Positions 1,929-62,970 of a DNA stretch of 64,000 bases are shown here, piece after piece (the first letter of the stretch is position 1; every line of letters begins with the position of its first letter). The position numbers were made by a program, and so were the translations under genes. The stretch covers positions 7,852 to 71,851 of the forward strand of contig SVTR01000006.1 of the NCBI GenBank assembly GCA_015063685.1. Direction: 5' to 3'. The notes beneath the pieces are model-generated. The model saw only the letters and a program-made list of their open reading frames with translations. It made no database searches and had not been told where the DNA came from. The DNA comes from Oscillospiraceae bacterium. Lineage in GTDB: Bacteria > Bacillota > Clostridia > Oscillospirales > CAG-272.

Positions 1929-2437
1929 ACAAAAATCTGACCATTCGCAAGGCCACCTATGCCGATCTTCCTGTACTTATGGCGATTTATGACCACGCCC
2001 GCGCCTATATGCGGGAGAATGGCAACATGGAGCAATGGAACGGTGGCTATCCCGGTATGCCGGTCATCGAGGAGGATATTTCCCTCGGCCGCTGTCACAT
2101 CTGCCTGGATGGGGGCGAGATCGCGGGGGTGTTCTGCTTCTTCAAGGGCAACGACCCCACCTACGCCCAAATTTACGACGGCGCGTGGCTGAATGATCAG
2201 CCCTACGGGGTCATCCACCGCATCGCCGTGGCAAAACACGGGGCAGGGGTGGCTTCCTTCTGCTTCGACTATGCTTTTGCCACCTGCGGCAACGTCAAGA
2301 TCGACACCCACAGGGACAACATCCCCATGCAGAACGCCCTCCGAAAGAATGGCTTTATCCGTTGTGGAATCATTTATCTGCAAAACGGAGATCCCCGTAT
2401 CGCCTACCAAAAAAGCCTTGGCGCGGAAGGGAAGTGA
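1925..2437 (+). CDS. GNAT family N-acetyltransferase
   Basis: ATGA start/stop overlap with the upstream gene. The sequence (IRKATYADLPVLMAIYDHARAYM..., YGVIHRIAV...GAGVASF) fits the small GNAT fold. Confidence 0.75.
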   Translation: MNKNLTIRKATYADLPVLMAIYDHARAYMRENGNMEQWNGGYPGMPVIEEDISLGRCHICLDGGEIAGVFCFFKGNDPTYAQIYDGAWLNDQPYGVIHRIAVAKHGAGVASFCFDYAFATCGNVKIDTHRDNIPMQNALRKNGFIRCGIIYLQNGDPRIAYQKSLGAEGK

Positions 2438-2441
2438 AGCT

Positions 2442-3122
2442 ATGACAGCACCTATCCGCGAGCCGGTGATCCTATGCGAGGACAAGCACCTGCTCCTGGT
2501 CTCCAAGCCTCAGGGGATGCCCTCACAGCCCGACCCGTCGGGGCAGGCAAGTCTGCTGACATATTTGGCTGAAAGATACCCCCAAGCGGGCTTGGTTCAC
2601 CGTCTGGATACCCCTACGGGCGGGGTTATGGTCTTTGCCAGGACCCCAGCCATGACGGGAAAGCTGGCGGCCTTGTTTGGTGACCATGAGTGCTATGAGA
2701 AGATCTATCTGGCCGTCTTATCAGCCCCGCCTGCCGAGGCTCACGGGGTCTTGGAGGACTATCTCTACCACGACAAGCGGCAAAATAAAGCCTTCGTGGT
2801 GACCCCAGCCGCCGACGGTACCCTCCGCAAGGGAGCCAAGGCCGCCAAGCTGACCTACGAGGTGCTGGAGACCCTGCCCGACGGCCTGACCCTGGTGAGG
2901 ATCAAGCTTCACACGGGGCGCACCCACCAGATCCGTATCCAGTTTGCCTCCCGCGGCTGTCCCGTGGCAGGGGATGGCAAGTACGGTAGCCGTGTCAAAT
3001 GCTCCTTCATCGCCCTGTGGTCGCATCGTCTGACCTTTGTTCACCCCGTGACGGGGAAGACGGTCAGCGCGGAGTCCACGCCGCCTGCGGACGTTGAGCC
3101 GTGGGGGAGGTTTGGGGGATAA
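2442..3122 (+). CDS. RluA-family pseudouridine synthase
   Basis: In-frame ATG at 2442. Contains LLLVSKPQGMPSQP and the catalytic HRLDTPTGGVMVFA motif, plus HTGRTHQIRIQF. Confidence 0.85.
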   Translation: MTAPIREPVILCEDKHLLLVSKPQGMPSQPDPSGQASLLTYLAERYPQAGLVHRLDTPTGGVMVFARTPAMTGKLAALFGDHECYEKIYLAVLSAPPAEAHGVLEDYLYHDKRQNKAFVVTPAADGTLRKGAKAAKLTYEVLETLPDGLTLVRIKLHTGRTHQIRIQFASRGCPVAGDGKYGSRVKCSFIALWSHRLTFVHPVTGKTVSAESTPPADVEPWGRFGG

Positions 3123-3322
3123 ATTGTTGTTTATGGGCGTTTACTGACCAACGAGGTCATCCTGAGCAAGGCCGCTGGCCGCGCCGAAGGATCTCTTTAT
3201 ACCTGTAAAAAACCATTGTCATAAAAAGGTTTTGCTTCCTGTGGGATCCTTCGACTCGGGCATCGCCCTCGCTCAGGATGACTGTCTCAAGGCGGGGCAC
3301 AACAACGCTAAACAACAATTTA
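3120..3322. mobile_element. MITE/BIME-like intergenic element, copy A (TAAATTGTTGTTTA ... TAAACAACAATTTA termini)
   Basis: Left terminus is 3120-3134; its TAA is the stop codon of the upstream gene. Right terminus is GCTAAACAACAATTTA at 3307-3322. Inside is an inverted pair of the 40-bp GTCATCCTGAGC...GAAGGATC module (3156-3195 forward, 3244-3282 reverse). Confidence 0.6.
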
Positions 3323-3345
3323 ATTCCCCAAGAAAGGAGAGAACC

Positions 3346-3996
3346 ATGACACGATCTTTAGAACAATATATTTCCGATTACCTTGGGGACTCCAGCTTTA
3401 CTCCTGAAGAGGTCTATGAGCTGGAAATCGGCGGCGTCCGCGTCCACGTAGAATCCTTCGAATACGACGGCGAGCCTTGGTGCAAGGAAAAAGCCCTTGT
3501 CACCATGAAAAAAGACAGCCTGACTTATGAATATACCGCTGTTGATGACCATAACTGGGAGAAACCCTTCTATCCCGTGACCATAAGTGGCACCGACTAC
3601 CTCTGCTTCCGCAAGACCCTCTACGGCTTCACTCTCCTGAACACCGAAACCTTTGAAGACTTTGACTTTTTCCCCGAAAAGGTGCTGAGCGGCGAGGAAT
3701 CTTATATCATCTCGGATGCCGTATCCTTTAAAAATTTGATCGTTTTTGACGGCTGCTATTGGGGGGCGCCCTACGTTTTTTGTATCTACGACCACCAAAG
3801 CAAGCGCATCCTTGATCTATACGAGACCTTGGGGCTGTATTCCCATGGTGACCTACCGAATGCGTCGATTTTCGGAAACGCGCTTGTGCTGAAATGCGAG
3901 AACCAAGGCTTTGAGCCTGCGACATTGACCCTCACTTACGAAGAACTAACACATTTGTTAAACGAAAAAGGCAAGTCCATATATAGCGATTTTTAG
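3346..3996 (+). CDS. hypothetical protein (216 aa)
   Basis: ATG at 3346 has an AAAGGAGAG RBS. Coding-like composition; I recognise no motif. Confidence 0.55.
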   Translation: MTRSLEQYISDYLGDSSFTPEEVYELEIGGVRVHVESFEYDGEPWCKEKALVTMKKDSLTYEYTAVDDHNWEKPFYPVTISGTDYLCFRKTLYGFTLLNTETFEDFDFFPEKVLSGEESYIISDAVSFKNLIVFDGCYWGAPYVFCIYDHQSKRILDLYETLGLYSHGDLPNASIFGNALVLKCENQGFEPATLTLTYEELTHLLNEKGKSIYSDF

Positions 3997-4014
3997 CAAG
4001 AAAGGAGCATTTCC

Positions 4015-5343
4015 ATGCCATTTCCCAAGAACTTTATCTTCGGCACCGCCACCAGCGCGGGACAGATCGAAGGCGCCGCCCGCGAGGACGGCCGCACCCC
4101 CTCCATCTGGGATATTTTTGCAGAAACCCCGGGCAAGACCTTTGGCGGCGAGACCCCTGCCGTGGCCTGCGACAGCTACCACCGCTTTTTTGATCGAGAT
4201 CTACCCAGCCTTAAGGCTCTGGGCGTGGATTCCTATCGCCTGTCCATCTCTTGGTCCCGCGTCATGCCCGAGGGTGTCGGCCCTCTGAACCCCAAGGGCG
4301 TGGACTACTACCGCCGTGTCTTTGAGGCTTTGCTGGAAAATGACATCATCCCCAACGTGACCCTCTACCATTGGGATCTTCCCCAGGTTTTGGAGGAAAA
4401 GGGCGGCTGGCGCAACCGAGATTCCATCGAGTGGTTCGGTGAGTACGCCGATAAGATGTTTACCGCCTACGGTGACATCGTCCCCATGTGGTCTACCGTC
4501 AACGAGCCCATCGCCACCTATGTCGGCTACGCCCACGGCGGCTTTGCCCCGGGACACACCAACGAGGCGTGGGGAAACCAGGCGAGACATAACATCCTGG
4601 TGGCTCACGGCAAAGGCGTGGAGGCTTTTCGAGCCCATAATCTGAAGTCTCAGATCGGTGTGGTCATCGACATCTGGAAGCGTCACGCCCTGACGAACTT
4701 CCCCGAGGATATTGCCCTCATGATCGACCAGGACGAGCGCAACTGGAAGTTCTACTGCGACCCCATCCTGGCAGGGAGGTACAGCGACTACATCCTTGAG
4801 CATCTTGAAAAAGAAGGTACCCTCATGGAGATGCACCCCCACGACTTTGAGCTGACGAGCCAGCCGCTGGATTACTTCGGCCTCAACGTCTACAACCGCG
4901 TCCCCGTTACCGTCAACCAGCAAGCGCAGATGGACTTCTCCCAAGGTGGAAACTTCCTCAACAACCGCACCGAGTATTACCCCAAGGCGGTCTACGATGC
5001 CATCCACCTGCTCCACGATCTCTACGATATCAAGATCCCCATCTACGTTACCGAAAACGGCACCTATTTTGAGGGTACCGAGCCTGTGGCCGCCGACGGT
5101 ATGGTGCATGACGACGACCGCATCCGTTACGTCAGCGGTTTCCTCGAGTGGCTGGAAAAGGCCATCGACGAGGGCTTTGACGTCCGCGGCTACTATCTTT
5201 GGAGCCTCATGGACAACTTCGAGTGGTCCGCGGCCTCCAATTTCAAGTTTGGCATCGCCACCACAGATTTCGCCACGGGCGAGACCAAGTGGAAAAAGAG
5301 CGCGTATTTCTACCGCGACTTTATCAAAAAGATGAAAGCGTAA
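4015..5343 (+). CDS. GH1 beta-glucosidase / 6-phospho-beta-glucosidase
   Basis: FIFGTATSAGQIEGA near the N-terminus, TLYHWDLPQ, acid/base NEP (TVNEP) and nucleophile motif YVTENG. Confidence 0.9.
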   Translation: MPFPKNFIFGTATSAGQIEGAAREDGRTPSIWDIFAETPGKTFGGETPAVACDSYHRFFDRDLPSLKALGVDSYRLSISWSRVMPEGVGPLNPKGVDYYRRVFEALLENDIIPNVTLYHWDLPQVLEEKGGWRNRDSIEWFGEYADKMFTAYGDIVPMWSTVNEPIATYVGYAHGGFAPGHTNEAWGNQARHNILVAHGKGVEAFRAHNLKSQIGVVIDIWKRHALTNFPEDIALMIDQDERNWKFYCDPILAGRYSDYILEHLEKEGTLMEMHPHDFELTSQPLDYFGLNVYNRVPVTVNQQAQMDFSQGGNFLNNRTEYYPKAVYDAIHLLHDLYDIKIPIYVTENGTYFEGTEPVAADGMVHDDDRIRYVSGFLEWLEKAIDEGFDVRGYYLWSLMDNFEWSAASNFKFGIATTDFATGETKWKKSAYFYRDFIKKMKA

Positions 5344-5542
5344 ATTGTTGTTTAGTATAGTTTCGCCCCACCTTGAAATAGTCATCCTGAGCGAGGGCGA
5401 CGCCCGAGTCGAAGGATCTCGTGATAAACGAAAGTCCTTTTATGATCATGGTTTGGAGAGGCAGAAGGAGATCCTTCGGCGCGGCCAGCGGCCTTGCTCA
5501 GGATGACAGCGCGCGCCGGTCGCCACGCTAAACAACATTTTA
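5341..5542. mobile_element. MITE/BIME-like intergenic element, copy B (same element as copy A, opposite orientation)
   Basis: Termini at 5341-5355 (its TAA is the GH1 stop codon) and 5527-5542. The 40-bp modules are at 5381-5420 (forward) and 5468-5507 (reverse). The order of the two module variants and the central segment is the reverse complement of copy A. Confidence 0.6.
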
Positions 5543-5561
5543 CCACACAAAGGAGAACACC

Positions 5562-6263
5562 ATGCCCACCTTCACCCTTGCATCCTTCAATATCTGCTCG
5601 GCTCACTTCAAGGAAGGGAAGTATACAGACGAAAACCTCCGCCTGGTGGCCGAGAAGATCACCGAAAGCCGTGCCCACGTTATCGCCCTCCAGGAGGTAG
5701 ATAGGGGCGCGTCCCGCTCCAACGGCGTGGATATGCCCACCCGTCTGTCTGAGCTGACGGGTATCCCCTACCACTATTTCATCAAGATCCGCGACTTCCA
5801 GGGCGGACAGTACGGCACCGCCATTTTGTCGAAATACCCCATCACCGCCGCCGAGACCCTGAATTTCCCCGTGAAGATCGCCACCCAGGGCACCTCCTGC
5901 GGCTACTGCGTGCTGGATGTGGACGGCACCCTCGTCACGGTTTATAACACCCATCTGTCCATTGAAAGCGAGGAGGCCAACACCGAGTGCCTCTCCTGCC
6001 TTGGGGATATTCTGAAGGCTCACGCCGACACCCACGGCGCGTTCCTGTGTTGCGGCGACTTCAACACCTCCCCCGAGAAGGTCAAAACCTACATCCCCTG
6101 GGTCACCCTTGCCCATAACGGCCTCCATACCTACGCCGACCGCTCCATCGACCACATCCTGTCCATTGCGCCCATCAAGACCCAAAACACCCGCACCATG
6201 GATACCCAGTACGACGGAACTACGGATCATGATATGGTGGTGACAGAGGTGACGGTGTCTTAA
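5562..6263 (+). CDS. endonuclease/exonuclease/phosphatase (EEP) family protein
   Basis: LASFNI... near the N-terminus, ALQEVD, GDFN, and C-terminal DHDMV, which are typical EEP motifs. AAAGGAGAA RBS. Confidence 0.8.
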   Translation: MPTFTLASFNICSAHFKEGKYTDENLRLVAEKITESRAHVIALQEVDRGASRSNGVDMPTRLSELTGIPYHYFIKIRDFQGGQYGTAILSKYPITAAETLNFPVKIATQGTSCGYCVLDVDGTLVTVYNTHLSIESEEANTECLSCLGDILKAHADTHGAFLCCGDFNTSPEKVKTYIPWVTLAHNGLHTYADRSIDHILSIAPIKTQNTRTMDTQYDGTTDHDMVVTEVTVS

Positions 6264-6381
6264 ACTCCACGTTCCGTGGATGTTTTCTTTCGAATGAGTT
6301 GCTTTACTCCTTGACTTTTTTCTGGTATGATATGGTCACGGTACCGTAATACTTTAGACAATACAAAAAGGAGAAGCCTAT

Positions 6382-7297
6382 ATGAATAAACCAACCGTAG
6401 GTCAGAATATTCGTCGTTTTCGCAAGGAAAAGAATATGACCCAAAGCGAGCTTGCCGAGCTTCTCGGCGTGTCTATACAAGCCATTTCTAAATGGGAGAC
6501 GGATGCGGGAATGCCGGATATTTCCCAAATTGTTCCCTTGGCGCGTGTACTTGAGGTGTCAACAGACAACCTTTTGGGGATGGAGGATGCGGAACAGGAG
6601 GCTGCTTTTGAGGAATTGAAGAGTCTGATTGGTCGATCTGTTCCGCACATATTACGTTTTGTCACGCTTTTATAAAAGCTTGGGAGAGCCTGCAAAGGCC
6701 GAAGAATTTACGGGACAGATTCCTGAAATATTTGGTGATCGTACTTATTTTGAAGCCGAAGTCGCTATGGCTGACGGAGATTACGAAACTGCCCTTCAAA
6801 AATGCCGAGAGAGCTTTTCAACCAAAGCAAGGTTTATGGCAAGGCTCATTCGAATGGCGGCGCAGATTCATTGTGCATGGGATGGAGGCCGTAATGAGCG
6901 CACTGTGGTATATAACGAATATATGCTCAATATGCTTAACGCCTTCCTCTCCTGTAGTGATTTTATCCCCATGCGCCAGGTGTTCCAAAAGGATTCTCTG
7001 TTGTACGGCATGATCACAGAATATTTGACGCTCGACAGAGCGGATGATGCATTTACAGCCATGGAAGAATTGTTTGCTCTGCGTGAGGAATGTATCAAGT
7101 TTTTGGCTGTACCCCAGGAAACGTCCTGTCTTATGCTTATTGATATGCCCTGCGATGACGGTCGTGACGGCTATTGCATTCAGCATATTGAAAAGTATAT
7201 TCAAAGGTGCCTGGATGCGCTGACACAATCTCCCCTGACGGCTCATGACCCGCGCTTGCAGGAGATGAAAGAACGCTTTGCGAGCTTCAAAAGCTGA
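6382..7297 (+). pseudogene. XRE-family HTH regulator with helical-repeat C-terminal region, apparently frameshifted
   Basis: ORF 6382-6675 encodes the HTH (NIRRFRKEKNMTQSELAELLGVSIQAISKWE). The helical-repeat part continues in another frame (6629-7297, ...YYVLSRFYKSLGEPAKAEEF...). An intact paralog lies at 7673-8779. This could also be two genes or an assembly error. Confidence 0.5.
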
Positions 7298-7372
7298 CGG
7301 TGCTATAACATCTTTTTAAAGAATCTTTTTCGTTTCTCCGCCTGATTCTCCCCCTTGAATTCAGGCAAAAAC

Positions 7373-7414
7373 AAGCGGTACTGATAAAATTTCAGTACCG
7401 CTTAACTTTTTCTT
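7373..7414 (+). terminator. rho-independent terminator
   Basis: Stem AAGCGGTACTGA / TCAGTACCGCTT followed by AACTTTTTCTT. Confidence 0.7.
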
Positions 7415-7427
7415 GAGGAACATTCTC

Positions 7428-7455
7428 TTTACAAATCCCCGAGATGTGGTATAAT
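7428..7455 (+). promoter_or_regulatory. sigma-70-type promoter candidate upstream of element C and the XRE regulator
   Basis: TTTACA, 16-nt spacer, TATAAT preceded by TGG (extended -10). Confidence 0.45.
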
Positions 7456-7493
7456 GAAGGTACAAAAGCGCTTTTGATGAGAATAGAGAATAA

Positions 7494-7651
7494 AAAATTG
7501 TTCTTTGCGTGGGCTTACTATGAACCCGTAGGGGCGAACTGCGTTCGCCCGCCGTTCCCCAAAAAACTTTGCTTATCAATATACTTTTATTACGGGCGAA
7601 CACAGTTCGCCCCTACGACCACGTTGGTCAGAAATCCGCAAACAACAATTT
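7494..7651. mobile_element. intergenic element copy C (degenerate left terminus, GTAGGGGCGAAC-hairpin cargo)
   Basis: Left AAATTGTTCTTTG (7495-7507) and right GCAAACAACAATTT (7638-7651). The cargo is an inverted pair GTAGGGGCGAACTGCGTTCGCCC (7528-7550) / GGGCGAACACAGTTCGCCCCTAC (7594-7616). Confidence 0.5.
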
Positions 7652-7672
7652 CCCTCACGAAAGGAGATTCAC

Positions 7673-8779
7673 ATGGAAATCGGAACCATAATCAAAAAAC
7701 ATCGCCGTCAGCGGGACATGACCCAGGAGCAGTTGGCCGAGTACCTGCGGGTATCGGTGTCCGCCGTGTCCCAATGGGAAAGCGGTAAGACCGCCCCCGA
7801 TTTGTCCCTGATCCCCGCCATATGCAACCTGTTCAACATCTCGTCGGACGAGCTCTTGGGAATCAATTTGGAGCAGAAGGAGCAGAGGATCAGCGATATC
7901 GAGGATCAAGCCAATCAGCACAGCTCCCGCGGACAGCTATGGGAAGCCGCTGATATATTGGAAGCGGGTCTACGGGAGTATCCCGACAGTTTTGGTCTCA
8001 TACACGATCTGATGTATGTCCGTTTCAGTCAATACTGTGCCAACCATGATTGCCTGCATGAGTTGGACGAGGCCATTCGCCTTGCCAACCGCATTTTGGA
8101 CGGATGTACGATCGACGGATACCGTGAAGCCGCCAAGCAAGTGTTATGCTATTCTTACGACAACAAGGGCGAACTGGACAAGGCCTTGGAGATTGCACGA
8201 AGCCTGCCATCCATTTATATCACCAATCAAGGTATGTACGCCCGATTACAGACGGGAAGCGAAGGACACAGCGCTCACCAGAGCCTGTTGAGTCATCTTT
8301 TGGATTTATTGAATCAAGAACTCAGTGTCAATAAGATATTGGATGACGGCACCCCCGCCTACACAGCGGATGAAATGGCGATCCTCTACCACAAGCAACT
8401 CACTCTCCACGAATTGATGATCGAGGACGGCAATTACGGCTTTTTCCATACCCGTTTGCAAGACATTCACATGGCATTGGCTTACTATTACGCAGGTAAG
8501 CATGATTCGGAAAAAGCTCTGTACCATCTCTCCGCCGCCGCAGATCATGCCGTCGCCTTTGTGGCGTGCGAGGGTCGCGGCGCATATACCTGCCTTTTGC
8601 TTCGAGGGCGTGTCACGGATGGTTTTACAACCAATGCCTCCAATAACAATGCCACCCAGATGCAGGGACGATTATCCTCTCCCACCTTCGACTTCCTCCG
8701 TTCCACCCCCGAGTTCACCGCCATCCTTGACCGCCTCAAGCCCGTGGCAGGGAGCTGGGAAGTGAAAGGGGAGGCGTAA
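7673..8779 (+). CDS. XRE-family HTH transcriptional regulator with TPR-like helical repeats (368 aa)
   Basis: AAAGGAGA RBS. HTH IIKKHRRQRDMTQEQLAEYLRVSVSAVSQWESGK. The long alpha-helical C-terminus has repeat-like segments (GQLWEAADILEAGLREYPDS, GELDKALEIARSLP, GKHDSEKALYHLSAAADHA). Confidence 0.75.
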   Translation: MEIGTIIKKHRRQRDMTQEQLAEYLRVSVSAVSQWESGKTAPDLSLIPAICNLFNISSDELLGINLEQKEQRISDIEDQANQHSSRGQLWEAADILEAGLREYPDSFGLIHDLMYVRFSQYCANHDCLHELDEAIRLANRILDGCTIDGYREAAKQVLCYSYDNKGELDKALEIARSLPSIYITNQGMYARLQTGSEGHSAHQSLLSHLLDLLNQELSVNKILDDGTPAYTADEMAILYHKQLTLHELMIEDGNYGFFHTRLQDIHMALAYYYAGKHDSEKALYHLSAAADHAVAFVACEGRGAYTCLLLRGRVTDGFTTNASNNNATQMQGRLSSPTFDFLRSTPEFTAILDRLKPVAGSWEVKGEA

Positions 8780-8872
8780 GCCATACTTTGTTGTTTACCA
8801 CTTGTGGTGGGGCTTTGGCTCGGGGATGTTCAACCTATGCGAACCGTGTCCCACGATGGGGGGGTAGGCCTG

Positions 8873-9498
8873 TAAATTGTTGTTTAGAGTATTATCCGCT
8901 TTTCTGTCAACAGCGACAGAAAAGCTCCAAAAGAACGCCGCTTAGTGCAGAACCTACGGTTCTCCCTAAGAACCCAACTCCCTCGTGACGCACGCAGACC
9001 ACAGAGGTGGTCTGCTATTGCGTATTTCTTTTCAGCCACCAGCGAAAGCCCGCCCCCACGGCGGAGCGCCTCGGGGCTCATCGAAAAGCCAATTGACATG
9101 TTTCTGTTGGCCGAACAGGGGAGGTTCAGGGTCATGTAGCGAAGCTATAGTTCTGATGGCGAATGGACAAATAATATTGTTTTTTAATCAAAAAATCTCC
9201 TTTCGCCGTGAGAACTATGGATTCAATGCTATTTTTACTATTGAATTTTTTAAAACCAACTAAAGCTTTCTAAACAGTACGGTATGAGCCTCAAGGCGCT
9301 CCGCCGCAGGGGCGGGCTATCGGCGTTGGCTGACACAAAACACGCGATAGCCGCTCCACTCCCTTTCGGGGAGCGGCGTGCGTCACGAGGGAGTTGGGTT
9401 CTTAGGGAGAACCGTAGGTTCTGCACTAAGCGGCGCTCTTTTGGAACTTTTCTGCCGCCGTGGGCAGAAAAGTGGAAAGAATGCTAAACAACAATTTA
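8873..9498. mobile_element. 626-bp intergenic element copy D: two ~210-bp inverted arms around an AT-rich core
   Basis: Termini TAAATTGTTGTTTAG (8873-8887) and GCTAAACAACAATTTA (9483-9498). The arms 8873-9081 and 9284-9498 are imperfect reverse complements. The core 9082-9283 is AT-rich. Confidence 0.6.
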
Positions 9499-9517
9499 TC
9501 TGCCTAACCACCCCACC

Positions 9518-9571
9518 CCAAATAAAACAAAAGGGATTCGCCCGTACCCCACGGGTACTCGGAATCCCTTT
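9518..9571 (-). terminator. rho-independent terminator of rpmF
   Basis: On the minus strand, stem AAAGGGATTC...GAATCCCTTT is followed by TGTTTTATTTGG. Confidence 0.75.
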
Positions 9572-9630
9572 GTTTGTTGCAAAGCATCGACGGACCACCC
9601 GACGGCCGCAACGGAAACCAACGGTGTAAA

Positions 9631-9825
9631 TTAAGCGTCCTGCTTGATGTCCAGAACCTTCTTGCCGCCGTAGTAACCGCAAACGGGGCAAACCTGATGA
9701 TTCTTGATCATCTCGTTGCACTCGGGGTTAGTACACTTGGAAAGACCGACAACTTCCAGCTTGGTGTTGTTGGATCTTCTGGTATTTCTGCGAGCCTTGG
9801 AAACTTTACGCTTTGGTACTGCCAT
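9631..9825 (-). CDS. rpmF: 50S ribosomal protein L32
   Basis: MAVPKRKVSKARRNTRRSNN... with a CxxC...CxxC zinc ribbon. I chose the internal start at 9825. Confidence 0.95.
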   Translation of the reverse strand: MAVPKRKVSKARRNTRRSNNTKLEVVGLSKCTNPECNEMIKNHQVCPVCGYYGGKKVLDIKQDA

Positions 9826-19206: not shown

Positions 19207-19365
19207 ATGAAAAAATTCATGGTATTGCTGATGGCCTTGGTGCTGTCTCTCGGTATGCTCGTTTCCTGTGATGAGTCCGAATCGGCGACGGACGAGACGG
19301 TTTCGGAAACTGCCGCTCAACAACCCGCCGCAACTGCCGCCCCCGCCCAGACGGTGGCCGACTAA
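19207..19365 (+). CDS. small putative lipoprotein (52 aa)
   Basis: Below the track's size cutoff. AAAGGAGG RBS 6 nt upstream. MKKFMVLLMALVLSLGMLVSC has a signal peptide and lipobox, followed by an acidic/Ala-Pro tail. Confidence 0.5.
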   Translation: MKKFMVLLMALVLSLGMLVSCDESESATDETVSETAAQQPAATAAPAQTVAD

Positions 19366-19393
19366 AGAAATGTTTTATTTGAGGAGAGAAAAC

Positions 19394-21151
19394 ATGAAAA
19401 AATTATTGGTATTACTTCTTGCCCTTGCCATGGTGTTATCTGCCCTTGTATCCTGTGATCTGCTGGAGGGCAATTTGCGTTCCGACGAAGATGAGGAAGA
19501 AGAGGAGGAGAGAACCACTAAGCGTCCTTCCAAGGAAACCGCAACACCCGTTACCGAAGGCCTATCAGAAGCCTTGACGGAAATTCTTAGGGATACTGCC
19601 GAGGAAACGAAAACGTTTGATGATGCGGTAGCAGAAACTATTTTCTTTGAAACGCTGGCACCCGAAACCATGGCACCCGAAACTATAGCACCTGAAACGA
19701 TGCCACCTGAAACGATGCCACCTGAAACGATGCCACCTGAAACCGAGCCTGCAACCGAAGCGATCACAGAGAACCTTTGGGGCGATCCCGGCTTCTCAAA
19801 TGTGCGTTTTGACGGCTTTGAACTGGTATTTTTGACCCGCGATGAAGGCGAATGGAGTACCCGCGAGATCTTTGCGGAAGGTTATCAAGCGCATCAGGAT
19901 ACACTTTCCGAGGCGGTTTACACCAGAAACAGCCATATTTACGATGAGCACGGTGTGATCGTCAAGGAATATAGGGTAAGTACCGGCGAGATCTATACAA
20001 AGGTGCGGAACGAGGCTTATGCGCCTACAGGTGATTTCCACGCAGTCATATCTAATGTAACCGATGCTCTCAATTTTACTAATAATACACTCATTTGTAA
20101 TTTGTCCTCCGAGGAAGCTTCTGCTATTAACTTTACAAACAGCTGGTGGGATCAGGATTTCGTGGAGTCCATGACTATTGCCGATCGTGTGTTCTTTGCC
20201 AACGGCGATCTGCTTACCTGCGATGATGACGCTACATTTGCCCTCATGTTCAACAAGGATCTTGCTACTGAAAGAAAATTGCCTGATCTTTACAAGGTGG
20301 TTACTTCTTATCAATGGACCCATGCAAAATTCTATGAATACCAGCAGCAGGCCTTCTGTGATTTGAACAGTGACGGTGTGTTGAGCTACGATCAGGATAT
20401 TTTGAGTTACGTAGATAGCCTTGACGGACAATATAGTTTGTTTATTGGCGCCGGTCTTAGGTTGGTTTCCAAAAATCCCGAAAACGGAGAGCTTGAGTGG
20501 AGCTTTAATGTAGAGAGAGCAACAGACGTTACTGACAGTGCCCGTGCTATTTTAGGCCATAAATCTTTTGTCAGCATAAATGATCTGGCAACGGCTAACG
20601 AACTTTCTCTCACTGAGGTTGGTGAACGCTACTTCGGTGGCAATCATGCGGTTTTCTTTGGTGACGTACTGCATTCCGTCCGCAGAATGCGCGGCTTTGA
20701 TATTGATTTTGGTATTCTCCCTTATCCCATGTATGATCAGCAACAAGGCGGCTATAAATCCTTCATGCACAGCGCTGGAAGTGTTCTTTCCCTTCCTCAA
20801 AGCGCCAAGCGGAATATGGAAACGGTTTCTACCATGATCGAAATTATGGCTTGCTATTCCCAGAACACCGTAACCAAAGCCTATTATGATGAATTGTTGA
20901 CCACGAAAAATGGTAGAGACGAGGCATCCGAGCCTATGATCGATCTGATCTTGAACACCCGTGAATATGACCCTGCTTACTACTTTGGCTGGGGAAGTGC
21001 TTATCCAAGTTTGATAGGGGCATTTGATCCCTCCAGTAACACACATATGTCTTCAGCTAGTAAAAAGCTGAGCATGTCAGTTAGCAGGCATATGGATCGC
21101 ACAATCGAGAAGATCGATAGAATTTATTCTGAATTAGAATACGGTTATTAA
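19394..21151 (+). CDS. lipoprotein, probably an extracellular solute-binding protein
   Basis: Internal ATG at 19394 with a GAGGAGAG RBS. MKKLLVLLLALAMVLSALVSC lipobox, an acidic linker with PETM repeats, and a large C-terminal domain resembling ABC substrate-binding lipoproteins (assigned by eye only). Confidence 0.6.
   Translation: MKKLLVLLLALAMVLSALVSCDLLEGNLRSDEDEEEEEERTTKRPSKETATPVTEGLSEALTEILRDTAEETKTFDDAVAETIFFETLAPETMAPETIAPETMPPETMPPETMPPETEPATEAITENLWGDPGFSNVRFDGFELVFLTRDEGEWSTREIFAEGYQAHQDTLSEAVYTRNSHIYDEHGVIVKEYRVSTGEIYTKVRNEAYAPTGDFHAVISNVTDALNFTNNTLICNLSSEEASAINFTNSWWDQDFVESMTIADRVFFANGDLLTCDDDATFALMFNKDLATERKLPDLYKVVTSYQWTHAKFYEYQQQAFCDLNSDGVLSYDQDILSYVDSLDGQYSLFIGAGLRLVSKNPENGELEWSFNVERATDVTDSARAILGHKSFVSINDLATANELSLTEVGERYFGGNHAVFFGDVLHSVRRMRGFDIDFGILPYPMYDQQQGGYKSFMHSAGSVLSLPQSAKRNMETVSTMIEIMACYSQNTVTKAYYDELLTTKNGRDEASEPMIDLILNTREYDPAYYFGWGSAYPSLIGAFDPSSNTHMSSASKKLSMSVSRHMDRTIEKIDRIYSELEYGY
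19658..19747 (+). repeat. six tandem 15-bp repeats encoding (A/P)PET(M/I) pentapeptides
   Basis: GCACCCGAAACCATG / GCACCCGAAACTATA / GCACCTGAAACGATG / CCACCTGAAACGATG x2 / CCACCTGAAACCGAG. Confidence 0.9.
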
Positions 21152-25981: not shown

Positions 25982-26069
25982 AGAGTGCCTCCTTGTGTGT
26001 TTTGTTTGTTTGCTTATTGTTGGGGAGTCGTTTCGCCTCCCGTGAAGAGGTAAAGAGGATGTGAGGTGC

Positions 26070-26144
26070 GTAGGAGCGAGCTGTGTTCGCCCGAAATTTT
26101 TTGAACCAAGATGTGTTAGGCGGGCGAACACAGTTCGCCCCTAC
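26070..26144. repeat. inverted pair of GTAGGGGCGAAC-N4-GTTCGCCC hairpin repeats (no TAAATTGTTG termini)
   Basis: GTAGGAGCGAGCTGTGTTCGCCC at 26070-26092 and GGGCGAACACAGTTCGCCCCTAC at 26122-26144. Same motif as inside element C. Confidence 0.7.
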
Positions 26145-26148
26145 GGTA

Positions 26149-27992: not shown

Positions 27993-28052
27993 ATGAGATT
28001 CCTCCTTTACTGGGAGTTTGTTATTAAAAAATGTTTATCTGGGGATGTTTTA

Positions 28053-28334
28053 TAAATTGTTGTTTATCTTTCTAACGTCGATATGATAACTTTAGGCGAG
28101 GTTGCACATGGTAAGCCTTCCCTTGTAAGGGAAGGGGGACCGCGTTAGCGGTGGATGAGTAGTCACACAAAAGGTTTTTGATCTAAAAAAGCTTTTGTGT
28201 GTAAAGAAATTTGAGCATTTTCCTTCGGAAAATGTTCTTTTATCAGGCTACTCATCCGTCACTCCCTTCGGTCGTGCCACCTTCCCTCACAAGGGAAGGC
28301 TTTGGTTCTCGGTAACCCCCGTAAGCAACAATTT
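28053..28334. mobile_element. intergenic element copy E (CCTTCCC-hairpin / GGATGAG cargo)
   Basis: Termini TAAATTGTTGTTTAT (28053-28067) and GTAAGCAACAATTT (28321-28334). The cargo is an inverted pair GCCTTCCCTTGTAAGGGAAGG...GGATGAGTAG (28115-28162) and its complement (28248-28300), around two further hairpins. Confidence 0.55.
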
Positions 28335-28361
28335 GTCAGGGAACCAAACGAAACGGAAGAA

Positions 28362-29738: not shown

Positions 29739-29818
29739 GGTGTATGGTCTCCTTTCGTTAAGGGGAATGAGTTGTATAAAAGTGGTTGATGTTTTGAACG
29801 AAAACATCAGCACCGGCG

Positions 29819-29918
29819 GTCATCCTGAGCGAGGGCGCCTACAATGCGGTCATCCTGAGCGAGGGCACCTACAATGCGGTCATCCTGAGCGAGGGCGCTG
29901 CCCGAGTCGAAGGATCTC
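29819..29918 (+). repeat. two 30-bp tandem half-modules plus one complete 40-bp GTCATCCTGAGC...GAAGGATCTC module
   Basis: GTCATCCTGAGCGAGGGCGCCTACAATGCG (29819-29848), GTCATCCTGAGCGAGGGCACCTACAATGCG (29849-29878), GTCATCCTGAGCGAGGGCGCTGCCCGAGTCGAAGGATCTC (29879-29918). Confidence 0.9.
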
Positions 29919-29942
29919 TTTTAATGAACCTTCGAGGATAAA

Positions 29943-30203
29943 TCATCCCAATTTGGATTCATTTTTGCTATTAGCATATTCTTTTTTTCTCTTCTCCAAC
30001 CCTTTAATTGCTTTTCTCGTGCGATTGCAGTCGAAGGATCGTGGAAGGCTTCGTAGTATATAAGTTTGTGAACGTGATATTTTTTTTGTAAATCCGTCTA
30101 TAAGATCGTGCTGGTGTTCATACAGGCGGCGGGAAAGATTGTTTGTAATACCGATATAAAGGACAGTATTGATTTTATTGGTTAATATATAGACATAAAA
30201 CAT
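29943..30203 (-). CDS. small GIY-YIG nuclease family protein (UPF0213-like), possibly degenerate
   Basis: MFYVYILTNKINTVLYIGITNNLSRRLYEH carries the GIY/YIG/Arg motifs. The C-terminal half is divergent. The gene is AT-rich compared with its surroundings. Confidence 0.75.
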   Translation of the reverse strand: MFYVYILTNKINTVLYIGITNNLSRRLYEHQHDLIDGFTKKISRSQTYILRSLPRSFDCNRTRKAIKGLEKRKKEYANSKNESKLG

Positions 30204-30212
30204 GATTTATTT

Positions 30213-30252
30213 GAGATCCTTCGACTCGGACAGAGTCCTCGCTCAGGATGAC
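30213..30252 (-). repeat. 40-bp GTCATCCTGAGC...GAAGGATCTC module (reverse orientation on + strand)
   Basis: The rc reads GTCATCCTGAGCGAGGACTCTGTCCGAGTCGAAGGATCTC. It starts 1 nt inside the stop codon of the DUF512 gene and ends 9 nt before the GIY-YIG ATG. Confidence 0.9.
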
Positions 30253-31565
30253 TACATTACCCCTAACATCTCACGCACGAACTCCGCGCCGTCGTTTTTG
30301 CCCGCCATCACGGGCACGCCCAGCTTCTTAGACAGCTCCTCGGGGGTCATATCGTCCAGGAAAATATCCTCCCCCGCGCGCAACGTATTCTCAGGGAAGA
30401 ACAGCACATCGCCCAGTTCCTTGCCCGCCAACTGCTCGAACATATCCTTGCCCGTCAGCAGACCCGCCACGGTGACGGACTCGCCGAAGAAGTGATTGAC
30501 GATCTCGTAAACATGGATGGTCAGCCCCTCCACCTGCGCCTCCAGACGCGCGGCCATGGCCTTGATGGTGGGATAGGCCGCCACACCCGTGCATATCGAC
30601 ACGGTGCGGGGTGCTTTGTACTCTGTTAAATCCTCCGCGAGGAAGTTCATCTCGTCCTCAAACTCGGTCATGAGGGAGGTGATCATGCCCACGCCGTTCT
30701 CGATCTGGGCGTAGCCCTCGTAGTAGTCCTCAGAGGGTAGGGGACGCCCCGCGCGGAGATACAGCTCGTCGGCACAGAAGAATTTCCGTGAGCCACAATC
30801 CTTCAAACACCGTGCCGCAAAATTCTCCACCATATCAATGATGGCAGCGGCCTCCTCAGCGGTGTAAGGGGTCAGAGGGTAGAGCTTGTCTCTGTGCTTG
30901 GTCAGCCCCGCAGGGACGATGGATACGCTTTCCAAGGCTTCTCCAAGGTTATAAAGATCACGCATGGAACGATACAGCTCCACACCGTCGTTGATGCCGC
31001 GGCATAAAACTAACTGTCCGCAGATGGTGATGCCAGCACGGGCCAGCCTCGGCAGATAGCCCAGAACCATTCCCGCCCGTTTATTGTTCATCATCTTGAC
31101 CCGAAGCTCAGGATTGGTGGTATGGACAGAGACGTTGACGGGGGAAATGTGCATCTCAATGATGCGGTCGATGTCCTTGTCATGCAGGTTGGTCATGGTG
31201 ATGAAGTTGCCGTGGAGGAAGGAGAGACGGCTGTCATCGTCCTTGAAGTACAGGGTCTCCCGCATCCCCTTGGGAAGCTGGTCGATGAAGCAGAAAATGC
31301 ACTTGTTCTGACAGGAGTGCTTCTTATCCATCAGCGGGGTCTCAAAATCCAGCCCGATATCGTCGTATTCCTGCTTGCGGATGACCACCTCGTAAGCCTC
31401 ACCGTTGCGGAGCAGGGAAAGGGTGACCTCCGTGTTGGTCAAAAAGAAACGGTAGTCCAGCACGTCGGAGATCTCACGCCCGTTGATGGACACAAGCACG
31501 TCCCCCGCCGCAACACCTTTTCTGGCCGCACGGCTGTTCTGTGCAACATCGGTAATTTTAACCAT
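30252..31565 (-). CDS. PDZ + radical-SAM-like DUF512 protein
   Basis: N-terminal PDZ (GVAAGDVLVSINGREI), a CQNKCIFCF cysteine motif and a long DUF512-type C-terminus. I recall this family sitting next to der in Firmicutes. Confidence 0.8.
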   Translation of the reverse strand: MVKITDVAQNSRAARKGVAAGDVLVSINGREISDVLDYRFFLTNTEVTLSLLRNGEAYEVVIRKQEYDDIGLDFETPLMDKKHSCQNKCIFCFIDQLPKGMRETLYFKDDDSRLSFLHGNFITMTNLHDKDIDRIIEMHISPVNVSVHTTNPELRVKMMNNKRAGMVLGYLPRLARAGITICGQLVLCRGINDGVELYRSMRDLYNLGEALESVSIVPAGLTKHRDKLYPLTPYTAEEAAAIIDMVENFAARCLKDCGSRKFFCADELYLRAGRPLPSEDYYEGYAQIENGVGMITSLMTEFEDEMNFLAEDLTEYKAPRTVSICTGVAAYPTIKAMAARLEAQVEGLTIHVYEIVNHFFGESVTVAGLLTGKDMFEQLAGKELGDVLFFPENTLRAGEDIFLDDMTPEELSKKLGVPVMAGKNDGAEFVREMLGVM

Positions 31566-35741: not shown

Positions 35742-35857
35742 AGATACAAGATACGCACCGAGCAAGCTCGGCCGATACAAGATACAAGATACAGAACGCG
35801 ATCCGCCGTAAAGGTTTTTGCATATCTTGTATCTTTGTATCTTGTAACTTGTATCTC
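35742..35857. repeat. heptamer-repeat palindrome (AGATACA)n ... (TGTATCT)n
   Basis: Forward units at 35742-35755 and 35774-35794, with a small CCGAGC-AA-GCTCGG hairpin between them. Five reverse units lie at 35822-35857. Confidence 0.85.
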
Positions 35858-56184: not shown

Positions 56185-56204
56185 GAACGGGAGTACGAGG
56201 AGTA

Positions 56205-56302
56205 CGCGAGGGGGAACTTTTGAGAAAAGTTCCCCCCTCGACCCCCTCAAAACTTTTAATAAAAAGGGAATTGGCCAAGAGATTTGACGCCCGAAAGGGA
56301 AG
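56205..56302. repeat. CGCGAGGGGGAACTTTTGA...CTCGACCCCCTCAAAACTTTTA...CCCGAAAGGGAAG repeat (copy 1)
   Basis: Near-identical blocks recur after leuB at 62837-62970. It begins 21 nt after the ilvC stop. Confidence 0.8.
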
Positions 56303-56324
56303 TAGTGGTCACTGGCCGCCTTCT

Positions 56325-56400
56325 GTAGGGGAGGGTTCTCCCCTCCCGATAAACATCGTGTACCCGTGTTGAAAAACGGGAGGCGCAACGCCTCCCCTAC
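56325..56400. repeat. inverted pair GTAGGGGAGGG...CCTCCCCTAC with internal hairpins
   Basis: GTAGGGGAGGGTTCTCCCCTCCC at 56325 and GGGAGGCGCAACGCCTCCCCTAC ending at 56400. A related GTAGGGGAGGGGCTTGCTCCTCCC lies at 48341-48364. Confidence 0.6.
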
Positions 56401-56532
56401 AACAAGACAATGCCATTGTAAGGGCAATCATCGGCCGTCCGCCAAATCACTTGATATTCAACCGCAAATACAAAAGCCCTTTTGTATTTCCCGTTGCATA
56501 TCAATTCATCAACATAGAAAGGAATATATACC

Positions 56533-58194: not shown

Positions 58195-58217
58195 AGTAAA
58201 ATTGAACGCTCCATAGT

Positions 58218-58316
<99 letters not shown>

Positions 58317-59860: not shown

Positions 59861-59950
59861 AAGATACGAAGATACGGAGATACAAAGATACAAGATATTG
59901 TTCATCACACATCTCATATCTTGTATCTCGTATCTCGTATCTTGTATCTG
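59858..59950. repeat. heptamer-repeat palindrome downstream of leuA (probable terminator-like hairpin)
   Basis: Forward GATACGA/GATACGG/GATACAA/GATACAA units at 7-8-nt spacing (59863-59897), five reverse GTATCT(C/T/G) units (59916-59950), then CCATTTTTTCC. Confidence 0.9.
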
Positions 59951-62836: not shown

Positions 62837-62970
62837 CGCGAGGGGGACTTTTGATAAAAGTCGCCTCAAAAGTTCGGCCAAATATGCCTTCGGCATGATT
62901 TGCCCCTCGACCCCCTCAAAACTTTTATCAAAAAAGAATCGATCAAGAGATTGGACACCCGAAAGGGAAG
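62837..62970. repeat. CGCGAGGGGGACTTTTGA...CTCGACCCCCTCAAAACTTTTA...CCCGAAAGGGAAG repeat (copy 2, with a 41-bp insertion)
   Basis: Same blocks as 56205-56302, plus an extra GCCTCAAAAGTTCGGCCAAATATGCCTTCGGCATGATTTGC segment. It begins 6 nt after the leuB stop. Confidence 0.8.

Follow-up and report, generated by a model that had tools for sequence, protein, structure and literature searches.

An intergenic palindromic mosaic repeat with constant AT-rich ends and exchangeable hairpin interiors in an Oscillospiraceae bacterium

Miniature inverted-repeat transposable elements (MITEs) of bacteria that are bounded by terminal inverted repeats (TIRs) include Correia/NEMIS of Neisseria, RUP of the pneumococcus and ERIC/IRU, while in the BOX elements of Streptococcus pneumoniae the middle consists of a variable number of one module, boxB. 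The bacterial interspersed mosaic elements (BIMEs) of enterobacteria, known from the work of Gilson and Bachellier, are mosaics of palindromic units and of motifs lying outside these units, external flanking motifs among them. Repetitive extragenic palindromic (REP) sequences and REP doublets forming hairpins (REPINs) go with RAYT (REP-associated tyrosine) transposases (Bertels and Rainey 2011, PMC3116915), GTAG-tagged repeats being one such kind (PMC3733652). Palindromes are also targets of insertion sequences (IS): IS1397 and ISKpn1 enter REP loops, IS110/IS1111 members enter REP or attC sequences, and ISPpu9 is found in REPs (PMC8450116). Here we describe an intergenic palindromic mosaic repeat from a 64,000-nt stretch of contig SVTR01000006.1 (assembly GCA_015063685.1, positions 7,852 to 71,851, forward strand) of an Oscillospiraceae bacterium; this whole stretch is called the window, and coordinates count from its first letter. 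Five elements, A to E, carry the AT-rich 14-mer TAAATTGTTGTTTA at the left end and its reverse complement at the right; we refer to this constant pair of ends as the shell and to the interior as the cargo. A preliminary description of this DNA had proposed a modular, MITE-, BIME- or BOX-like family with constant ends and exchangeable hairpin cargo between operon genes, which both the enrichment of the ends and the site polymorphism reported below support, although it cannot be assigned with certainty to any named family, MITEs included. With about even confidence, we read the elements as non-coding, selfish hairpin mosaic repeats built in layers, a mobile AT-rich shell with REP-like doublets nested inside it.

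The 14-mer TAAATTGTTGTTTA was found exactly on the plus strand at 3120, 5341, 8873 and 28053, and its reverse complement exactly at 3309-3322 and 9485-9498; degenerate copies occur at 5529-5542 (one mismatch), 7639-7652 and 28322-28335 (two each) and 7494-7507 (three). Element A (3120..3322; termini 3120-3133 and 3309-3322) and element D (8873..9498; termini 8873-8886 and 9485-9498) have exact ends, whereas element B (5341..5542) has an exact left terminus (5341-5354) and one mismatch at the right (5529-5542). Element E (28053..28335), which separates the minus-strand genes der and obg, has an exact terminus at 28053-28066 and two mismatches at 28322-28335. The shell of element C (7494..7652) is degenerate (three and two mismatches), with an A14-to-G change common to both ends. 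No strand is assigned to the elements; they are 159-626 bp long, D being the 626-bp one, and none contains a credible open reading frame (ORF). Up to three mismatches being allowed, the window holds 12 matches vs. 2.9 expected, a count that none of 100 shuffles reached, and no shuffle matched the paired pattern. The preliminary description had judged the 14-mer and its reverse complement too frequent for chance, as the shuffles bear out, and its terminus positions stood overall, apart from two right-end coordinates that were off by one.

That the pattern is a chance match or an assembly artefact has virtually no probability left. Palindromic repeats do cause assembly errors: many metagenome contigs start or stop inside an element (ends of L005, L232, L242, L245, L254, L273 and L286, the L numbers denoting comparison loci), and three contigs (L229, L250, L305) fold back around one, their flanks being identical reverse complements for 45 nt or more. 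Such breaks and chimeric fold-backs are assembly artefacts of a high-copy palindromic repeat. Yet elements A-C are base-for-base identical in two other, independent assemblies (L001 from ENA, L002 from JGI), whose contigs both stop inside element D, and dozens of members come from unrelated samples. Together with the shuffles, these assemblies and metagenome members have already refuted the explanation.

The two 14-mers, TAAATTGTTGTTTA and TAAACAACAATTTA, are the halves of one 28-bp AT-rich palindrome, AAATTGTTGTTTATAAACAACAATTT. Each of A-E folds, on either strand, as one long hairpin with the paired 14-mers at its base (folding Z-scores of -4.8 to -36). The interior of A consists of inverted GTCATCCTGAGC...CGAAGGATC modules (3156-3195 and 3245-3282) around an AT-rich centre (3196-3244), and that of B has its modules at 5381-5420 and 5468-5507. 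B is A inverted, as the preliminary description held: complementarity reaches 88 % over 78 nt between the right arm of A and the left arm of B, and 89 % over 56 nt between the left module of A and the right module of B. C contains a GTAG-tagged REP-like doublet (7527-7551 and 7593-7617), and E has AAGCCTTCCC...GGGAAGG modules at 28113-28138 and 28277-28302. The arms of D measure 138 nt (88 % complementary) and 68 nt, and hairpins within each arm retain their own stems via compensatory changes. Two earlier statements had to be corrected. TA stands at both ends in three of the five window copies (A, B, D), not in four, and the 14-mers are not always arranged as inward-facing pairs. A solo unit on the plus strand (8784..8872), made up of a degenerate left terminus (8784-8797, two mismatches) and a 75-nt hairpin unit, abuts element D; it is the one diverged window copy of a unit that locus L328 (3231-3440) carries as a direct tandem, in which three 14-mers with a period of 103 nt are each followed by the same hairpin-rich unit.

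The elements occupy characteristic positions at gene junctions. ORFs 2193-3122 and 4015-5343 terminate on the terminus TAA of A and B, so that TAA 3120-3122 is the stop codon of a pseudouridine synthase gene (rluD-like) and TAA 5341-5343 that of a GH1 gene; the right termini of A, B and C lie 23, 19 and 20 nt ahead of the ATGs at 3346, 5562 and 7673, respectively. Both the shared stop codon and the nearness of the right terminus to the next start codon had been recognised in the preliminary description. Of 92 ends of the family, 25 have a terminal TAA that is in frame with an open stretch of 80 codons or more, as against 7 and 2 in the two alternative frames, and a ribosome-binding site (RBS) plus ATG is found within 25 nt of about a quarter of the ends, most commonly at a distance of 7 nt. 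Not all copies are intercistronic. A bidirectional terminator-like hairpin (7373-7403) is followed by a strong promoter-like site (7428-7455, TTTACA-16-TGnTATAAT), which places C in the 5′ leader of a helix-turn-helix (HTH) regulator gene, with the RBS of that gene (7673) downstream; D follows the last gene of its unit and precedes a terminator, and in the orthologous pair L270/L290 the element is situated between divergent promoters.

Whichever strand is read, U predominates in the 5′ arm and A/C in the 3′ arm, TAAACAACAATTTA; no U-tract follows the hairpin, and a scan for intrinsic terminators lists no terminator-like site inside A-D. As the hairpin runs into an A/C-rich arm on either strand, transcription termination is not expected. 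The gene layout suggests that the elements are co-transcribed with their neighbours, probably by read-through. To judge from sequence, the supply of a TAA stop codon, the missing U-tract and the intact RBS would together account for survival in operon junctions of 12-15 nt.

To follow the family beyond the window, metagenome contigs were scanned for the paired 14-mer pattern with one free position per end, which gave at least 120 matches. Among the matches listed, 71 unique elements passed a cut-off of at least 45 % contig GC, their contigs having 50-60 % GC, and 65 of the 71 have T/T at the free positions, an enrichment of pairing that the preliminary description had predicted. Low-GC matches, with free positions near random, were set aside as chance or unrelated palindromes. 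More members were found in loci L004, L005, L013, L069 and L326-L328 from metagenome-assembled genomes (MAGs), plus L331. In a logo of 144 ends the 14-mer is essentially invariant, these ends having been chosen as perfect, a choice that biases any measure of end conservation among the metagenome loci; a weaker outward consensus (T at -8, A at -4 and -3, G at -2, R at -1) spans about 9 nt, and the first inner position avoids A. Outward of the 14-mers, flanking positions show no covariation within elements, so the stem stops at the 14-mers, and an apparent outward stem extension in A and D was dismissed as an effect of this consensus. In viral contigs the bare 14-mer gave at least 120 single random matches, which makes it alone too unspecific for large collections; the paired pattern gave one true member (L331) and two chance matches, and a scan for short-gap palindromes gave none. 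Genome-wide copy number is an extrapolation from five elements in 64 kb.

Two further observations concern the composition of the family. The same shell-plus-cargo composite occurs at unrelated loci, as in A/B (83 %), L326/L331/L214/L004 and L215/L277. The 28-bp palindrome was also found intact and cargo-free, at 5828-5855 of L237, where CAAATTGTTGTTTA is joined directly to TAAACAACAATTTA, 6 nt past a stop codon and 2 nt ahead of AGGAGG-ATG.

Comparison of orthologous sites, which the preliminary description had proposed, revealed presence/absence and cargo polymorphism at sites A, B and E. The der gene places the host in a lineage of uncultured Clostridia/Oscillospiraceae from ruminant and other animal guts, the closest MAGs having 100 % Der amino acid identity and approximately 95 % nucleotide identity. 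At site B, between the GH1 gene and the EEP nuclease/phosphatase gene, L324 and L325 lack a shell and their stop-RBS junction measures 12-15 nt (GH1 protein identity 85 % and 83 %; 79 % nucleotide identity for L325), and L323 (84 % nucleotide identity) has no shell either. In L326, L327 and L328 (94, 89 and 88 % nucleotide identity) the left terminus stands on the same stop codon, with a different interior in each. Site A in L326 has the right terminus and flank of the window with a different cargo family, and site E in L005 has the terminus and both flanks of the window with unrelated cargo, whereas L003, L004, L006, L012 and L019 lack a shell at site E and some of them hold other insertions. 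The inserts of the der-obg spacer (window 27993-28361; L003 11374-12567; L004 11378-12687) differ despite der and obg being approximately 95 % identical: a NUDIX gene and a DUF559 element in L003, an ORF of about 400 codons in L004, and a shell in the window and in L005. This spacer is an insertion hot spot. In five of five close-strain comparisons the ends were kept and the interior was replaced, and more distant relatives lack the whole element; the shell-less sites are too diverged to fix exact element boundaries. Neighbouring genes vary at the same edges. The 216-aa gene following A (3346-3996, no Pfam match) is absent in L324 and L325, where rluD abuts GH1, and in L327 an extra 223-aa gene (54-725) begins directly at a shell terminus, which puts a gene gain/loss breakpoint at the outer edge of the 14-mer.

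These results bear on the idea of a host-selected intercistronic RNA element, whose AT-rich basal stem would be a conserved stop/RBS signal and whose interior would be free to vary. The role of such an element could lie in processing by RNase, in stabilising the transcript or in coupling translation, in which case the terminating ribosome would melt the stem and set free the A/C-rich 3′ arm beside the RBS. The ends are indeed far better conserved than the interiors, orthologous sites included, the placement is stereotyped (TAA as stop codon, RBS about 7 nt past the 3′ end), and the stem forms in all copies with no U-tract after it. However, some copies lie where a read-through transcript is unexpected (L270/L290 between divergent promoters, D before a terminator), and both orientations work alike. 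The element is missing at orthologous junctions of relatives that retain the same operon, and its density is strikingly unequal between 95 %-identical genomes, with 10 termini in 64 kb of the window vs. none in 21 kb of L003. Contigs that break inside elements, as at high-copy repeats, speak in the same direction. We consider a host-selected role improbable, and the elements probably have no dedicated host function.

The interiors comprise at least seven hairpin module types; GTCAT..GAG modules are present in 39 of 75 elements and GTAGGG in 13 of 75. The modules also occur on their own. The GTAG-tagged module of C type, CGTAGGGGCGAAC..GTTCGCCCG, recurs as a bare doublet at 26069..26145 (no strand assigned), which has no shell and shows the GTAGG..GCGAAC...GTTCGCCC module of the C cargo. 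Cargo of the type GGAGTACG + hairpin + CCCTTTCAAAAACTTTTAA lies inside the shells of L004, L326 and L331, and GGAGTACG-type cargo is found bare after stop codons in the window and in several species without shells. The window example is a cluster after ilvC (56185..56420, no strand assigned) consisting of GGAGTACG, a hairpin and CCCCTCAAAACTTTTAA, followed by a GTAG doublet; a hairpin resembling a terminator and an AT stretch resembling a promoter may be combined in it. A 60-nt stretch of this ilvC-side cluster recurs at 62911-62970 with 77 % identity. The cargo modules are thus independent REP-like repeats, present without the 14-mers, and their bare occurrence together with their presence in many related species without shells indicates that the cargo is older and more widespread than the shell.

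Two kinds of small nuclease gene are associated with the modules. The 40-nt GTCATCCTGAGC...CGAAGGATC modules of A and B recur without 14-mers at 29816..30258 (minus strand), as inverted repeats around a small GIY-YIG nuclease gene (29921-30203) for a 93-aa protein, a gene that carries a frameshift in a T8 run (30080-30087) and matches Pfam with an E value of 1.4e-18 after frame correction. Beside this gene lie 2.5 tandem 30-nt half-modules (29816-29905), and an array of approximately eight copies of the same half-module stands upstream of der in L003 and L004 (9663-9923). Modules of the type found in E flank a DUF559 nuclease gene (Pfam E 6.9e-26) in the der-obg spacer of L003 and L019; this 122-aa, Vsr-like gene is located between inverted GGGAAGGTGGCAC..GACGGATGAGGG modules at 11890-12480 of L003 and 11440-12010 of L019. 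Element E looks like a gene-less miniature of this arrangement. The GIY-YIG and DUF559 genes are tied to the modules only and neither is linked to the shell itself.

Like REPINs, the cargo is made of short, GC-rich, imperfect palindromes that stand as inverted doublets on either side of a short spacer, some of them starting with GTAG (7527-7551 with 7593-7617; 26069-26093 with 26121-26145); it is dispersed in intergenic DNA and forms long hairpins, and in the gene-bearing versions inverted modules surround the gene. Only part of the cargo fits the definition of a REP as a short GC-rich imperfect palindrome with a conserved GTAG (or CGTC) tag, and the 14-mer shell, AT-rich and without a tag, falls outside it. 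REPINs are not known to have a counterpart of the outer AT-rich 14-nt inverted repeat that encloses the doublets here, and the genes between the modules encode GIY-YIG and DUF559 nucleases rather than a RAYT (Y1 HUH) protein; no match to Y1_Tnp (RAYT) was found among the window ORFs. Judged by eye, CGAAC-N3-GTTCG in the C module has the wrong spacing for a LexA box of the Gram-positive type, and a Rex operator was rejected for its differing half-sites and wrong spacing.

With BIMEs the elements share hairpin motif types combined in alternating orientation, conserved non-hairpin brackets and an extragenic location, often inside operons. They differ from them in sequence and phylum, in brackets that form an exact inverted pair also present as an uninterrupted palindrome, and in strain-level exchange of cargo at fixed brackets. 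BOX elements share the modular plan in which the end modules are constant and the middle varies, but here several unrelated hairpin families supply the middle, which is palindromically nested. The likeness to Correia, RUP and ERIC extends to a size of 100-600 bp, non-coding sequence, terminal inverted repeats, TA ends, hairpins, occurrence in either orientation, size variants arising by internal insertions and deletions, and co-transcription with neighbours, suggested here by gene layout. In contrast to these families, we found no cognate IS and no demonstrable target duplication, the interiors are unrelated between copies, and roughly one end in four overlaps a stop codon. None of REPINs, BIMEs, BOX, Correia, RUP and ERIC is known to bracket unrelated hairpin families with an AT-rich palindrome that is also found uninterrupted. 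An Rfam search of the whole window at the gathering score, a check the preliminary description had suggested, gave no match, and at E <= 1 the region 3000-9700 gave only miRNA-precursor hairpin models, 40-100 bits under threshold. Full-text literature searches with the 14-mer strings gave only primers and unrelated matches, and searches on GIY-YIG, REP, REPIN, DUF559 and MITEs in Clostridia gave general REPIN/RAYT papers in which the family is not described. The preliminary description, too, had not recognised the family from the literature.

Under the layered reading, the shell halves TAAATTGTTGTTTA and TAAACAACAATTTA would serve as terminal inverted repeats, and the shell would reach new intergenic sites via a trans-acting enzyme encoded outside the window. 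In its dispersal, its occurrence in either orientation and its absence from relatives' orthologous sites, the shell resembles MITE terminal inverted repeats, and it is probably mobile. The shell centre would be a preferred nest for REP/REPIN-like doublets (GTAG-tagged, GTCAT..GAG and CCTTCC..GGAAGG modules), and the inner layers may turn over fast, as units insert into and excise from the centre or as copies convert one another, while the ends stay fixed. The proposed nesting step has a parallel in palindrome-targeting IS, which insert into the centre of a palindrome and split it into inverted halves; those IS are protein-coding and 1-1.5 kb long, unlike the non-coding doublets of 100-600 bp inserted here.

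Several results weigh against the layered reading. Pfam searches of approximately 55 window ORFs gave no transposase or recombinase, as the preliminary description had noted for transposases, and neither an autonomous element nor an enzyme was found in the window or in approximately 1.8 Mb of related loci. Inward-facing 14-mer pairs 700-3000 bp apart were absent from 1.3 Mb of related loci. No direct repeat above shuffled expectation was detected at the boundaries (offsets -4 to +13, k = 2-8). TA at the boundaries is invariant and indistinguishable from part of the repeat; of the TA target duplication that the preliminary description had thought fitting, if unproven, the invariant TA stood, and no variable duplication was seen at any offset. 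No exactly alignable empty site was obtained, so insertion is deduced from diverged orthologues. Among cargo-free palindromes with up to five mismatches, 1.8 Mb of related loci yielded only the one in L237, which may have arisen by deletion and need not be a nest that was never filled. Finally, the 14-mer is near-perfect at site B across 12 % nucleotide divergence, which could reflect host selection, and end conservation at L238/L265 and L270/L290 is biased by ascertainment, since these loci were picked for perfect ends.

The same evidence leaves room for a plain TIR-type MITE moving as a whole, with the 14-mers as TIRs recognised by a TA-targeting IS630/Tc1-like transposase elsewhere in the genome, an explanation we regard as a serious contender that is nevertheless unlikely. 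TA at both ends of most copies and a palindromic flank consensus (outward GR before the left TA, YC after the right TA), as for the target of a dimeric transposase, are consistent with it, as are the same composites at different loci, the missing shell at relatives' orthologous sites and the two orientations (A vs. B). On the other hand, no partner IS with these TIRs was found in the 1.3 Mb of related loci, the invariant TA is inseparable from the repeat, and where TAA serves as the stop codon, the right-hand TA is mostly followed by Y, whereas a TA duplication in TAA/TAG predicts A/G. The interiors would then have to be MITE subfamilies, and cargo change at one site would have to result from hot-spot reinsertion or ectopic conversion, which likewise seems rather doubtful: replacement of cargo at unchanged ends in all five close comparisons is hard to achieve by re-insertion, and a cargo-free palindrome exists.

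A more specific form of nesting may be put forward only tentatively, as something we doubt more than we believe. The 28-bp palindrome may be a dedicated docking site whose exact centre REPIN-like hairpin cassettes of several unrelated families enter and precisely leave, so that they are exchanged between strains at fixed intercistronic sites, maybe driven by the small structure-specific nucleases (GIY-YIG, DUF559) encoded between modules of the same kinds. If true, this would be a layered, repeat-within-repeat mobility system with its own receptor site, a kind not described for bacteria.

Exchange at fixed sites also invites comparison with site-specific recombination. The 14-mers would in that case be recombinase half-sites that allow segment inversion (inverton) or cassette swap, cf. 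Xer/dif modules and attC. In favour of this, inverted sites bracket short stretches just ahead of genes, and B repeats the segment of A in the opposite orientation. Cargo is replaced, and a neighbouring gene gained or lost, with breakpoints at the 14-mer edges; the uninterrupted palindrome also allows an 11-6-11 reading, which is the core-site layout of tyrosine recombinases. Nevertheless, each boundary carries half a palindrome, as left by insertion at the centre, rather than a full site, and the Pfam search of the window ORFs gave no recombinase or invertase gene. The A, B and D centres have no conserved promoter (a near-promoter in the A centre is absent in B), and no locus was seen in both orientations (L001/L002 vs. 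window; L213 vs. L317); on these grounds, with the assemblies agreeing in orientation, an inverton was rejected. An attC site requires RYYYAAC...GTTRRRY, whereas the ends, ..TTGTTGTTTA ... TAAACAACAA.., run GTT...AAC and neither heptamer fits; the arms, compared by eye, do not match a dif site. The flanking genes, moreover, are housekeeping genes. We consider site-specific recombination highly improbable.

The window carries housekeeping genes, among them rluD-like, GH1, EEP nuclease/phosphatase, HTH regulator, hydrogenase, spoIVA, plsY, obg, der and ilv/leu genes. A second, unrelated kind of intercistronic hairpin is present in this genome: heptad-repeat hairpins with (AGATACA)n facing (TGTATCT)n occur at 58213-58316, 59862-59950 and 35835-35857 and fill the ilvD-leuA and leuA-leuC junctions. 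Separately, seven tandem copies of a 15-nt unit, GAAACGATGCCACCT, at 19649-19753 encode a pentapeptide repeat in a 627-aa ORF (19268-21151) that has no Pfam match.

If the layered reading is true, selfish palindromic DNA colonises the tightest parts of operons without breaking them, and short intergenic repeats act as landing sites for other repeats. The cargo would then change faster than the flanking genes gain a few percent of substitutions, and with such fast change it would serve as a natural marker of strains in a gut lineage that is abundant but uncultured. When metagenomes of these organisms are assembled, contigs often break or fold back into chimeras, which the elements account for. 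In addition, the link of orphan small GIY-YIG and DUF559 nuclease genes, which are very common, to REP-like repeats suggests a role for these genes in repeat mobility.

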